A stretch of 6,306 nt of DNA from a virus (taxonomy: Duplodnaviria; Heunggongvirae; Uroviricota; Caudoviricetes), in the IMG/VR virus record IMGVR_UViG_2671180405_000009; one strand, 5' to 3'. The position numbers and the translations under genes are program-made. Of the stretch, positions 789 to 6,306 are shown piece after piece; positions within the stretch are counted from its first letter, which is position 1; every line of letters begins with the position of its first letter. The notes beneath the pieces were generated by a model that saw nothing but the letters and a program-made list of their open reading frames with translations, was not told where the DNA came from and did not search any database.

Positions 789-913
789 GAACCGTTCTGA
801 CAGCTTCGGCTTTGAACTCTTTAGAGTAACGTTGGGTTTTTCTGCTCATTATTAGCTCCTTCTGATGCCATTCTATTTTAGGAAGGAGTGTCCGTTAAAC
901 TCAGGCTACCTCA
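789..913 (-). mobile_element. IS3-family insertion-sequence left end (terminal inverted repeat, leader and first 20 codons of orfA); IS600-like from memory; truncated
   Basis: The reverse complement of 904-913 begins tgaggtagcc (an IS3-family-style TG terminus). Minus-strand ATG at 849-847 encodes MSRKTQRYSKEFKAEAVRTV, a helix-turn-helix OrfA N-terminus I recall from IS600-type elements. The transposase reading stops making sense exactly at the N at 788. Confidence 0.55.
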
Positions 914-1026
914 GTGCTTTCCTTACTGTATATATCGTTTCGCCCGCTTTTGCGTTTTTTTCTTTTCAAATCCCTTTCATTTCTCAGTGTAAAACTACGC
1001 CATCCGTTATTTGCGGAGGTGAGGCT

Positions 1027-1745: not shown

Positions 1746-2191
1746 GCAGAGTCACCGCGATTATCTCCGCTCTGGTTATCTGCATCATCGTCCGCCTGTC
1801 ATGGGCTGTTAATCATTACCGTGATAACGCCATTACCTACAAAGAGCAGCGCGACAAAAACGCAAGAGAACTGAAGCTGGCGAACGCAACCATTACTGAC
1901 ATGCAGCAGNATGCACTCGATGCTAAATACACGAAGGAGTTAGCTGATGCGAAAGCTGAAAATGAAACTCTGCGCGCTGATGTTGCCGCTGGTCGTCGTC
2001 GGTTGCACATCAAAGCAGTCTGTCAGTCAGTGCGTGAAGCCACCACCGCCTCCGGCGTGGATAATGCAACCAGCCCCCGACTGGCAGACACCGCTGAACG
2101 GGATTATTTCACCCTCAGAGAGCGGCTGATGACGATGCAGATGCAACTGGAAGGGGCACAGGAGTATATCCGCACTCAGTGCATTAAGTAG
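1742..2191 (+). CDS. Rz: Rz i-spanin (inner-membrane spanin subunit)
   Basis: [49 protein letters not shown]... is near-identical to lambda Rz as I recall it: N-terminal TM helix plus coiled-coil periplasmic domain. ATGA overlap with the R stop; SD ggggg at 1732-1736. One ambiguous codon from the N at 1910. Confidence 0.9.
1947..2129 (+). CDS. Rz1: Rz1 o-spanin (outer-membrane lipoprotein), embedded in the +1 frame of Rz
   Basis: [24 protein letters not shown]... has a lipobox (LVVVGC) and a proline-rich stretch (PPPPP), as in lambda Rz1. SD aaggag at 1934-1939, 7 nt before the ATG. Lies entirely within Rz. Confidence 0.85.
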   Translation: MRKLKMKLCALMLPLVVVGCTSKQSVSQCVKPPPPPAWIMQPAPDWQTPLNGIISPSESG

Positions 2192-2233
2192 CCTTTTTAT
2201 CGTGGTAAACATTTCGCAGGGTATGAGGTATTT

Positions 2234-2584
2234 ATGCCATCACTAATCCCACGTGCCTGCCGTAAGCGTGGATGTGCAGGTACAACCACAGACAGTTCGG
2301 GTTACTGCGATAAACATCGCGGTGAAGGCTGGGTGCAGCACCAGCGCGGACTGAGCCGCCACCAGCGTGGCTATGGCTCAAAATGGACGGTGATTCGTGC
2401 CCGTATTCTGAAGCGCGATAAAGGTCTGTGTCAGTTGTGTCTGCGTGTCGGTGTGGTGAGCGAGGCGAAAACCGTCGACCACATCATCCCGAAAGCGCAT
2501 GGCGGAACAGACGCAGACAGCAACCTGCAGAGTCTGTGCTGGCCCTGCCATAAAGCGAAAACAGCGCGCGAACGAATCCGGTGA
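2234..2584 (+). CDS. Phage HNH endonuclease (terminase-associated type)
   Basis: 116-aa product with an N-terminal Cys cluster (CRKRGCAG...YCDKHR) and an HNH core (DHIIPKAHGGTDADSNLQSLCWPCHKAKT). SD tgagg at 2224-2228. Its position immediately upstream of terS is typical of HK97-like phages. Confidence 0.85.
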   Translation: MPSLIPRACRKRGCAGTTTDSSGYCDKHRGEGWVQHQRGLSRHQRGYGSKWTVIRARILKRDKGLCQLCLRVGVVSEAKTVDHIIPKAHGGTDADSNLQSLCWPCHKAKTARERIR

Positions 2585-2602
2585 TAATTATTCTCACTTG
2601 TA

Positions 2603-2667
2603 GGGAGGGGCGGGGCAAATCCCTGTGACCTGACGTCTTCCGGACTGCCCGCCCCATCGTTTTTTTA
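2603..2667 (+). promoter_or_regulatory. Putative cos / packaging-initiation region (G-rich and C-rich inverted blocks plus T7 tract) between the HNH and terS genes
   Basis: Seen in sequence: ggggcggg (2607-2614) can pair with cccgcccc (2648-2655) around a 33-nt loop containing a gacgtc palindrome, followed by ttttttt (2660-2666). A cos function is inferred only from the gene order and GC-rich character; I cannot identify the cut site. Confidence 0.3.
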
Positions 2668-2705
2668 TACCCGCGAAAAATGAAATTTAACCAGGAGTGC
2701 CGCAT

Positions 2706-3200
2706 ATGGCTGGAACGGCGGGGCGTTCCGGGCGTCGCCCCAAGCCAACGGCGCGCAAGGCGCTGGCCGGAAACCCCGGCAAGCGAGCCCTGAACAAAGA
2801 TGAACCTGTTTTTACGCCCATCAAAGGTGTTGAGCCACCAGAGTGGTTCGCTGAAGAAGATCTCCCTCTCGCCACGATCATGTGGCAACTGACAACCAAA
2901 GAACTCTGCGGTCAGGGCCTGCTGTGCGTGACTGACCTGGCGGTACTTGAGCGGTGGTGCGTGGCCTATGAGTTCTGGCGACGTGCCGTGAAAAATATTG
3001 CCATACAGGGCAACACCATCACCGGTGCAATGGGCGGCAGGGTCAAAAATCCGGAGCTGACCGCCAAAAAAGAACAGGAGTCCGAGATGAGCAGCACGGG
3101 GGCAATGCTCGGACTCGACCCCAGCAGCCGCCAGCGTCTGATTGGCCTGGCGGGGCAGAAGAAAGCCACTAACCCGTTTCTGAAAATTATCGAATCATGA
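2706..3200 (+). CDS. Terminase small subunit (P27-type, assigned from context)
   Basis: About 164-aa basic N-terminal protein ([27 protein letters not shown]...) directly upstream of, and translationally coupled to, the large subunit (ATGA overlap at 3197-3200). SD aggag at 2693-2697, 8 nt before ATG 2706. The GTG at 2697 is an alternative start. Confidence 0.75.
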
Positions 3201-4930
3201 GCCGGAAATCTTACCCCAACGTAAATGCTGCAAATCAGTATGCCCGGGATGTCGTGCGCGGAAAGATTGTTGCCTGCCAGTTTGTGATTCAGGCCTGCCA
3301 GCGCCATCTTGATGACCTGATGGCGGAAAAAAGTAAGTCGTTTCGTTACCGCTTCGACAAGGACCTGGCTGAACGGGCCGCGAAATTTATTCAGCTGTTG
3401 CCGCACACCAAGGGGGAGTGGGCATTCAAACGGATGCCCATCACGCTGGAGCCGTGGCAGCTATTTGTGATCTGCTGTGCGTTTGGCTGGGTCAATAAAG
3501 GCACCCGGTTGCGCCGCTTCCGGGAGGTGTACACCGAAATCCCCCGTAAGAACGGCAAATCAGCAATCTCTGCCGGTGTTGCCCTGTATTGTTTTGCCTG
3601 TGATAACGAGTTTGGCGCGGAAGTGTATTCCGGTGCCACGACAGAGAAACAGGCGTGGGAAGTCTTTCGCCCGGCGCGACTGATGTGTAAACGCACACCC
3701 ATGCTGACGGAAGCGTTCGGGATTGAGGTTAACGCCTCAAACATGAACCGTCCGGAGGATGGCGCGCGGTTTGAACCGCTGATCGGCAACCCAGGTGATG
3801 GTTCATCACCCCACTGTGCCGTGGTTGATGAATATCACGAGCATGCCACCGATGCGCTTTATACCACAATGCTTACCGGGATGGGGGCGCGACGTCAGCC
3901 ACTGATGTGGGCCATCACCACCGCCGGGTACAACATTGAGGGGCCGTGCTACGACAAGCGGCGGGAAGTCATCGAGATGCTCAACGGCTCGGTGCCTAAC
4001 GATGAACTGTTCGGGATCATCTATACCGTTGATGAAGGTGACGACTGGACCGGCCCGCAGGTGCTGGAAAAAGCCAATCCAAATATTGGCGTGTCGGTTT
4101 ATCGCGAATTTTTGTTAAGTCAGCAGCAGCGTGCGAAAAATAACGCCCGTCTGGCAAACGTCTTTAAAACAAAACACCTCAATATCTGGGTGTCGGCGCG
4201 TTCGGCGTATTTCAACTTGGTGAGCTGGCAGAGCTGCGAGGATAAATCACTGACCCTTGAGCAGTTCGAGGGGCAGCCGTGCATTCTGGCCTTTGACCTG
4301 GCGCGTAAGCTGGATATGAACAGCATGGCGCGACTTTATACCCGCGAGATTGACGGTAAAACGCATTACTACAGTGTGGCCCCGCGTTTCTGGGTACCGT
4401 ATGACACGGTGTACAGCGTCGAGAAAAATGAAGATCGACGGACAGCCGAACGCTTTCAGAAATGGGTGGAAATGGGCGTTCTGACCGTTACCGATGGTGC
4501 GGAGGTGGATTATCGCTACATCCTCGAGGAGGCCAAAGCGGCGAACAAAATCAGCCCGGTCAGTGAGTCACCCATCGACCCCTTCGGGGCGACCGGGTTG
4601 TCACATGACCTTGCTGATGAAGACCTGAATCCCGTCACTATCGTCCAGAACTTCACCAATATGTCCGATCCGATGAAAGAGCTGGAAGCAGCGATTGAAT
4701 CGGGACGTTTTCATCATGACGGCAATCCCATCATGACCTGGTGTATCGGCAACGTGGTCGGCAAAAACATGCCGGGTAACGATGATGTGGTGAAACCCGT
4801 CAAAGAGCAGGCGGAAAACAAAATCGATGGTGCAGTTGCGCTGATTATGGCGGTTGGCAGAGCCATGCTGTACGAGAAAGAAGACACGCTGTCTGACCAC
4901 ATTGAGTCCTACGGGATCCGCTCGCTTTAA
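3197..4930 (+). CDS. Terminase large subunit (ATPase plus RNaseH-like nuclease), HK97-like
   Basis: 577-aa product with a Walker A-like motif PRKNGKS (residues about 116-122), a Walker B-like motif [10 protein letters not shown], and a C-terminal acidic nuclease region ([10 protein letters not shown]). Size and position fit a terminase large subunit. Confidence 0.92.
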
Positions 4931-4941
4931 CTGAGGTAATT

Positions 4942-5124
4942 ATGATCATGCTGATTCTCGCGCCTCTGGTGGGCGTGCTGGGTGCGCTTTTGCTGGCGTA
5001 TGGTGCCTGGCTGATTTATCCCCCGGCGGGTTTTGTTGTTGCCGGGGCGCTGTGCCTGTTCTGGTCGTGGCTGGTGGCGCGATATCTCGACCGTACACGG
5101 CAGTCTGTCGGCGGAGGTAAATAG
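4942..5124 (+). CDS. Hypothetical small membrane protein (60 aa, two predicted TM helices) between terL and portal
   Basis: SD gaggt at 4933-4937 before ATG 4942. Product [60 protein letters not shown] has two hydrophobic helices and a basic tail. Codon usage is ctg/gcg-rich like its neighbours. Stop TAG 5122-5124 overlaps a GTG at 5124. Confidence 0.55.
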
Positions 5125-6280
5125 TGTTCTTTTCGGGATTATTTCAACGAAAAAGCGATGTGCCGGTGACCACGCCAGCAGAACTGCTGATGCTATCGGG
5201 CTGTCATACGACACCTATACCGGAAAGCGGATCAGTAGCCAGCGGGCCATGCGCCTGACGGCGGTCTATTCTTGCGTCAGGGTGCTGGCAGAGTCTGTTG
5301 GTATGCTGCCCTGCAGTCTCTACAAAATCAGCGGTACCCTGAAAACACGGGCGGTGGATGAACGACTGCATAAGTTGGTTTCGGCAAAACCTAATGGCTA
5401 CATGACACCGCAGGAATTCTGGGAGCTGGTTATTGTCTGCCTGTGTCTACGGGGGAATTTTTACGCCTACAAGGTAAAGGCACTGGGAGAAGTGGTGGAG
5501 CTTCTTCCGATAGATCCGGGCTGTGTGGAACCGAAGCTGAACAGCCAGTGGCAGCCGGTTTATCAGGTGACGTTTCCGGATGGTTCCGTGGATGTGTTGA
5601 CCCAGAATGAAATCTGGCATGTGCGCACCCTGACGCTGGATGGACTTGTCGGGCTGAATCCCATTGCGTATGCGCGTGAGGCCATTTCACTGGCAGCGGC
5701 AACCGAGGAGCACGGTGCCAGGTTGTTTAGTAATGGTGCGGTGACATCCGGTGTGTTGCGTACGGAACAAAAGCTCACGCCGGATGCTTACGAGCGTCTG
5801 AAGAAAGATTTTGAGGAGTGTCACACGGGGCTTGGCAATGCTCACCGCCCGATGATTCTGGAAATGGGGCTGGACTGGAAGTCGATGGCGCTGAACGCCG
5901 AGGACAGTCAGTTCCTGGAAACCCGCAAGTTTCAGCTGGAAGAAATCTGTCGTCTGTTCCGGGTGCCGTTGCACATGGTGCAGAACACCGATCGCGCCAC
6001 CTTCAACAATATCGAAGAGCTGGGGCTGGGATTTATCAACTATTCACTGGTGCCGTATCTGACCCGCATCGAACAGCGGATCAACACCGGACTGGTACGA
6101 AAAAGTAAGCAGGGCGTTTATTACGCCAAATTTAACGCCGGGGCGTTACTGCGCGGGGATATGAAGTCCCGTTTTGAAGCCTACGCCACCGGGATCAACT
6201 GGGGAATTTACTCTTCCAATGACTGCCGCGACCTGGAAGATATGAATCCGCGTCCCGGTGGTGTAATGCCGATCAGTTAA
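5124..6280 (+). CDS. Portal protein (HK97-family by context), with a reading-frame discontinuity near the 5' end
   Basis: A long ORF (frame of 5033, ending at taa 6278-6280) encodes the portal body. The best start is GTG 5124, with ggagg at 5113-5117 six nt upstream, but it is in a different frame that stops at tga 5256-5258. A 1-nt indel in 5124-5258 is therefore implied; the first in-frame ATG of the long ORF is far downstream (the Met in ...SQRAMRLTAVY...). Confidence 0.75.
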
Positions 6281-6306
6281 GGATCAGTTGACCGATCCAG
6301 TGGCTG

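Follow-up and report, generated by a model that had tools for sequence, protein, structure and literature searches.

A portal gene broken by an IS4 insertion and, very probably later, by loss of a single G in a prophage of Shigella sonnei

The window analysed here, which is the whole stretch of 6,306 nucleotides taken from the IMG/VR virus record IMGVR_UViG_2671180405_000009, can be assigned by its sequence to prophage DNA of Shigella sonnei. It carries what we identify as the late-gene module of a lambdoid prophage resembling phiP27, ST64B and e14, with tRNAs, lysis genes, HNH, TerS, TerL, ymfR and portal (Table 1). The window starts inside a tRNA-Gly(TCC) gene (positions 1 to 33), the last gene of a prophage-borne tRNA cluster that lies upstream of the lysis genes and reads tRNA-Met(CAT), Arg(TCT), Thr(TGT) and Gly(TCC) in the finished genome L004 (779 to 1089). 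The product of the identical TerL gene in L004 carries the Pfam domains TerL_ATPase and TerL_nuclease, and the orthologues of the ymfR-like gene have the same 1-nt overlap with the portal start that is seen here.

Table 1. Coordinates of the portal locus and of the genes and elements adjoining it, counted from the first nucleotide of the window
Feature	Position	Strand	Basis or remarks
Terminase large subunit gene, 577 aa, intact	3197..4930	+	ORF list; carries derived T4217
ymfR-like 60-aa membrane protein gene	4942..5124	+	ORF list; orthologues named 'protein YmfR' or 'membrane protein'
Shine-Dalgarno GGAGG	5113..5117	+	Sequence
Portal pseudogene, HK97-type, PF04860	5124..6263	+	Keeps ancestral residues 1-380 (of 413); lacks 1 nt in codon 21/22; IS4 cuts 3′ end
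Leftover 44-codon ORF from the true start	5124..5258	+	21 native codons, 23 out-of-frame codons, TGA
Site of the lost G	5185..5186	+	Ancestral CTGGCT, window CTGCT; either G of the doublet
343-aa ORF called by annotation pipelines, 'portal protein [Shigella sonnei]'	5249..6280	+	Residues 43-380 plus VMPIS
IS4 target site GTCCCGGTGGTG, 12 nt	6252..6263	+	Copied beyond IS4 in L019 (4197-4208)
IS4 left end, first 43 nt	6264..6306	+	Divergence from portals at 6264; transposase continuation in L009

All Ns of the window and all its differences from L004 are confined to positions 715 to 1910, within the repeated lysis cassette, and from 1911 to 6306 the two sequences are 100% identical. The stretch 715 to 1225 is mis-assembled and holds the 5′ end of the holin gene twice, at 715 to 787 and at 1036 to 1187, the second copy with 3 mismatches against the finished genome. 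Between the two copies lie an N (788), the end of an IS600-like element of the IS3 family (789 to 931, minus strand, with 95% identity to the IS600 of E. coli) and about 100 nt from the region upstream of another prophage's holin, and a gap of 38 Ns (1188 to 1225) follows the second copy. The lysozyme/Rz region at 1226 to 1910 differs by 7 SNPs from finished S. sonnei chromosomes and looks like a consensus into which reads from paralogous lambdoid lysis cassettes were collapsed. A single N at 1910 replaces 16 nt and is the only break in the gene for an Rz-like spanin (1730 to 2191), which holds an embedded, out-of-frame Rz1-like lipoprotein ORF (1947 to 2129) in the normal arrangement.

The start of the portal gene and its body lie in different reading frames. 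The Shine-Dalgarno motif ends 6 nt ahead of GTG 5124, and this codon shares 1 nt with the TAG (5122 to 5124) of the upstream ORF. Frame 0 from the GTG encodes 21 native residues followed by LMLSGCHTTPIPESGSVASGPCA and stops at TGA 5256 to 5258; the portal body is in frame 2, which stays open from 5033 up to 6280. The overlap of the two frames covers 5033 to 5258. These elements had all been described in the initial annotation, namely the start with its ribosome-binding motif and its overlap with the preceding stop, the end of the GTG frame and the separate frame of the body, and every coordinate agrees with the sequence and the ORF list.

A megablast search with positions 4900 to 5500 as query against complete E. 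coli genomes and phages returned about 1400 relatives, and the top relatives (95 to 96% identity) span 602 nt where the window spans 601. In alignments with 25 intact relatives (phiP27, E. coli A36, ST64B, K-12 e14 and 21 more prophages) the only net frame-changing gap is a missing G at 5185/5186, where the window has CTG-C and the relatives CTGGC, one uncompensated gap of 1 nt. The initial annotation had tentatively placed a missing G at about 5184 to 5192, and the gap falls inside that interval. Putting one G back yields ...PAELADAIGLSYDTY..., which agrees letter for letter with the ST64B and e14 proteins there, and after this repair the nearby nucleotide differences from ST64B are synonymous. 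Since 21 residues match in one frame and about 360 in another, a chance match is excluded.

Portal homologues numbered 3328 at E ≤ 1e-50. All full-length homologues aligned, drawn from 12 clusters whose names cover about ten enterobacterial genera, have the N-terminus MFF[SPQ]..F, and in the same clusters the Met encoded at 5249 is an internal, conserved residue, number 43. The portals of phiP27, E. coli A36 and ST64B are 413 to 414 aa long and annotated from the same GTG (3 nt upstream in ST64B), and their starts overlap the stop of a ymfR-like gene. Judged by these homologues, GTG 5124 is the authentic portal start. Portals beginning at the internal Met had been considered in the initial annotation; the homologues found begin with the peptide of the GTG frame, K-12 beeE included. 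When repaired, the protein matches PF04860 at E = 2.6e-107, with residues 47 to 373 on profile positions 2 to 321 of 321. The domain thus lies downstream of the frameshift, and the Pfam alignment that had been suggested for locating the switch could not have found it; full-length homologues were needed. A full-length portal of this kind is an uninterrupted ORF of about 408 to 416 aa, running from MFF..F to an acidic C-terminal tail. The window portal falls short of this because of the frame change at 5185/5186 and the loss of residues 381 to 413 to IS4, and it is best classified as a portal by descent and not as a functional member of the HK97-type family.

The deletion recurs in independent assemblies. 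The 201 nt from 5100 to 5300 recur unchanged in ten S. sonnei assemblies of chromosome scale (L004 to L013), one of which, CP037997 of S. sonnei FC1653, is a hybrid of MinION and Ion Torrent data. At least 1000 contigs carry the exact 343-aa product 'portal protein [Shigella sonnei]', and 1695 blocks of the collection list it, counts that are rough frequencies only, as look-ups by exact protein product select for the allele asked; many chromosomes of 4.8 to 5.0 Mb are among these records. Six IMG/VR contigs were found by a pattern that fits either allele, and all six carry the deletion. Contigs with the deletion allele come from different pipelines, Logan assemblies of raw runs among them, and the deletion site is a GG doublet and no homopolymer. 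Neither the 44-aa peptide of the GTG frame nor the 415-aa ORF from TTG 5033 is on record by exact look-up, an absence that is uninformative either way since gene callers do not call these ORFs. Pattern scans of one-genome-per-species and metagenome contigs gave no match, and S. sonnei has no separate species representative there. The 1-nt deletion is, on this comparison of assemblies, real and heritable, and the absent ancestral G is no draft artefact.

Other interrupted genes were seen in some of the same assemblies. In L007, L011 and L012, TerL, TerS, recN or nadK is split into two ORFs, where others have the gene intact, and these splits probably stem from leftover long-read errors, not from genuine decay. 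Unlike them, the portal deletion is present in all the chromosome-scale assemblies.

An un-frameshifted product of 385 aa (P0136, S. sonnei, ending in ...GGVMPIS with the same IS4 tail) was found in 19 contigs and 31 blocks, again as a rough frequency, and testifies to the persistence of the ancestral allele in a minority of S. sonnei assemblies. A sequence search located the G in ten such loci (L020 to L029), nine of which were aligned to the window over 2200 to 6306 or from the contig start, and L024 only to 5038. Over 4.1 kb the differences from the window that these loci share are only the G and a C, not T, at 4217, and one locus has one additional SNP. T4217 lies in TerL and is a synonymous change in a Leu codon (CTG to TTG), and its linkage to the portal deletion was complete across the 20 S. 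sonnei loci compared. As the outgroups carry C4217 and G5186, the deletion and T4217 are both derived and linked, and together they appear as marks of the dominant S. sonnei clade. No paper was found in a literature search for the runs carrying the G allele; the rarity of this allele might fit a minor S. sonnei lineage, for example lineage 1. Phase variation of the portal was considered and rejected, there being no repeat tract and the alleles being linked to a SNP.

The other lesion, which the initial annotation had overlooked and which is the older of the two, lies at 6263/6264. In alignments all portals part from the window after 6263, and the portal is thereby cut after residue 380 of 413, with its last 33 residues lost. 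The end of the window matches L004 and L009 from position 7016, and in L009 (7100 to 8425) the terminal sequence of the window continues into the gene for a 442-aa transposase with the domains Nterm_IS4 and DDE_Tnp_1. IS1 as the source of the last 43 nt was rejected, the transposase domains in L009 being those of IS4. Insertion of IS4 duplicates 11 to 13 bp of target sequence, and the 12-bp duplication found here, with GTCCCGGTGGTG at the left junction and again to the right of IS4 in the IMG/VR scaffold L019, is within this range. Beyond the right end of IS4, L019 has this duplication, the last portal codons, a prohead protease gene, a capsid gene and lambda-like tail genes. The contig of the window ends at the same base within IS4 as those of two other S. 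sonnei drafts (L021 and L022).

Finished S. sonnei genomes have TerL and ymfR upstream of the portal, and IS4 followed by chromosomal genes downstream. The right flank of IS4 is there either bamE-recN-nadK or raiA-pheL-pheA-tyrA-aroF, and the target duplication is absent from it (L004, L009). The bamE-recN-nadK flank is found in most finished genomes, where IS4 is split by an IS3-family element (L004, 7016 to 9830), and the raiA-pheA-tyrA-aroF flank in L009 and L013 (7016 to 8470). The missing target duplication indicates a later recombination between IS4 copies, and with chromosomal genes as right flanks the two halves of the portal are no longer adjacent in these genomes. Protease, capsid and tail genes after the other end of IS4 were found only in L019, which also gave the only match in a pattern search for the junction. 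Exact look-ups of the protease (P0150) and the capsid (P0165) returned only prophages with intact 413-aa portals, and none of L004 to L013. In K-12, bamE-recN-nadK and raiA-pheA-tyrA-aroF lie at opposite ends of a 16.8-kb segment (2,737,154 to 2,753,946); with the two ends swapped beside IS4, this segment appears inverted between S. sonnei strains.

The IS4 insertion is common to both alleles, all ten G-allele loci running into the IS4 junction seen in the window, and it is therefore older than the frameshift, which would have arisen in a portal gene that was already dead. We hold it as very probable that the portal is a pseudogene formed by ordinary decay, with IS4 entering codon 381 first and one G lost from codon 21/22 later. 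In the proposed course of events, IS4 would have transposed into codon 381 with a target duplication of 12 bp and removed the end of the protein, and a later recombination between IS4 copies would have parted the 5′ end of the portal from the remaining morphogenesis genes. One G of the GG doublet would then have been deleted in the ancestor of the S. sonnei clade that is dominant today, after which translation from the authentic GTG would stop after 44 codons. The deletion may well have been selectively neutral, the gene being non-functional already. An inactivated portal in a defective prophage had been the fallback reading of the initial annotation, and it holds.

The reading preferred there, an indel that sequencing or assembly introduced in this draft alone, draws on the Ns in the window and on its mis-assembled repeats. 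All this trouble, however, sits in the lysis cassette, and from 1911 onward the window follows finished chromosomes base for base; the same deletion is present in the ten chromosome-scale assemblies, the six IMG/VR contigs and the at least 1000 contigs described above, at a doublet and not at a homopolymer. The alternative allele is furthermore tied to a second SNP, and such co-segregation is what a lineage polymorphism would show and random error would not, so that a draft indel has practically no probability left. The reverse order of the lesions, in which the frameshift inactivated the gene and IS4 came later, would follow from L019 if this scaffold were taken at face value, since in it the deletion allele runs on into an intact 3′ end of the portal gene. 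At 2445 to 2838 the frameshifted portal is bridged to the intact 3′ end and to a partial protease gene, and after this bridge come IS4 and the region once more, this time complete. Against the window the bridge has mismatches at 6215 and 6262, just ahead of the junction, and at 3 of 386 positions it disagrees with the genuine copy flanking IS4 on the same scaffold. With these differences in a paralogue-like stretch of a single scaffold that contains N, the bridge is read as chimeric, probably a join with a paralogous prophage, and it would mislead attempts to order IS4 and frameshift. L019 itself also holds the genuine right end of IS4 with the target duplication and the portal 3′ end. The G allele, moreover, has the identical IS4 junction (31 blocks), and a frameshift that came first would require the same IS4 insertion twice, or recombination; we consider that order very unlikely.

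Two further explanations would let the interrupted gene still yield a product. A programmed −1 ribosomal frameshift, or other recoding, could join the N-terminus of the GTG frame to the body and give a full-length portal, and the shift needed is indeed −1, with overlapping frames. Programmed −1 frameshifts are known from phage morphogenesis genes in tail assembly chaperones of the G/GT type, and like these the window portal belongs to the late genes of a phage and has two frames that overlap, and a −1 shift would restore its product. Unlike them, it has no slippery heptamer, the frame change is not conserved, and an unshifted allele is found in the same species. No X XXY YYZ heptamer in frame 0 occurs anywhere in 5124 to 5258, and the sole runs, TTTT at 5130 and AAAAA at 5150, are both upstream of the point at which homology changes frame. 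The gene is read in a single frame in the 25 intact relatives at the DNA level and in 12 full-length homologues at the protein level, the G allele of S. sonnei needs no shift, and the 3′ end of the portal is missing anyway; recoding of this kind is extremely improbable. Internal initiation at ATG 5249, perhaps coupled to termination, would instead give an N-truncated portal fragment with some role. This ATG and the TGA of the leader overlap as ATGCGCCTGA, the TGA lying 5 nt past the ATG, a geometry at 5249 to 5258 that is compatible with termination-reinitiation. The 343-aa ORF that starts here at Met43 is the annotation found in the databases, and it holds the whole PF04860 domain (E = 1.7e-107). 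However, no Shine-Dalgarno sequence stands ahead of 5249, Met43 is internal and conserved across homologues, and the 33 C-terminal residues are swapped for five that IS4 encodes (VMPIS), with the stop at 6278 to 6280 inside the element. No protease or capsid gene is adjacent in finished genomes, which together with the lost C-terminus makes a role in virion assembly not credible, and S. sonnei is too young for an intact ORF to signal selection. Internal initiation of a fragment with a role is thus very unlikely, and still less likely is its domestication through reinitiation at ATGCGCCTGA, for example as a decoy that would poison the head assembly of superinfecting HK97-like phages. The 343-aa 'portal protein' would rather be an artefact of gene calling and no product with a role.

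The closest intact relatives found are L38 (NP_543090) of the Stx2e phage phiP27 and portals of 413 aa from E. coli prophages such as that of strain A36, with 92.6 to 92.7% DNA identity over 5124 to 6263. They share with the window gene the start, the flanking ymfR and TerL and the PF04860 domain, and differ from it in being intact at 413 aa in one frame, with prohead protease and capsid genes next to them. A truncated portal in a defective prophage is also known from E. coli K-12, where the cryptic prophage e14 carries beeE (b1151). The order of terminase, ymfR and portal is the same there (ymfN-ymfR-beeE), the GTG start overlaps the ymfR stop by 1 nt, and the N-terminus is near-identical to that of the window. 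beeE differs in that a deletion or fusion ends it after about 135 native residues, with no frameshift at codon 21/22 and IS4 not involved, and over the stretch in common its DNA identity to the window is only about 79%.

Genomes of S. sonnei hold about 660 to 860 PGAP pseudogenes and about 480 to 500 IS copies (PMC12795559, PMC6836418, PMC7373316), and five IS, namely IS1, IS2, IS4, IS600 and IS911, have expanded throughout Shigella (PMC7373316, PMC12795559, PMC6836418). The locus matches this IS-driven decay in having IS4 in the portal, an IS3-family element in that IS4 (in most finished genomes) and the IS600-like end at 789 to 931. A pseudogene formed by a small indel also matches the Shigella pattern, with no difference in kind, and the portal lesions are ordinary Shigella pseudogene decay. 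The feature is ordinary and its sequence lies in thousands of public records; in the literature searched, no description of this locus or of the order of its two lesions was found.

The finding carries little biological weight, the portal being one among several hundred pseudogenes of an IS-expanded S. sonnei. Ns elsewhere in a contig are uninformative on the accuracy of its unique sequence, and annotators should neither 'repair' 5185/5186 nor blame the quality of the draft. What databases list as a 343-aa 'portal protein' is the body of a gene broken twice, with an internal Met taken as its start. The two haplotypes, deletion with T4217 and G with C4217, are a candidate marker of S. sonnei clades, at roughly 98% and 2% of records, and the IS4 junction that is shared by this pair of alleles offers a small worked example of how events of decay can be ordered.
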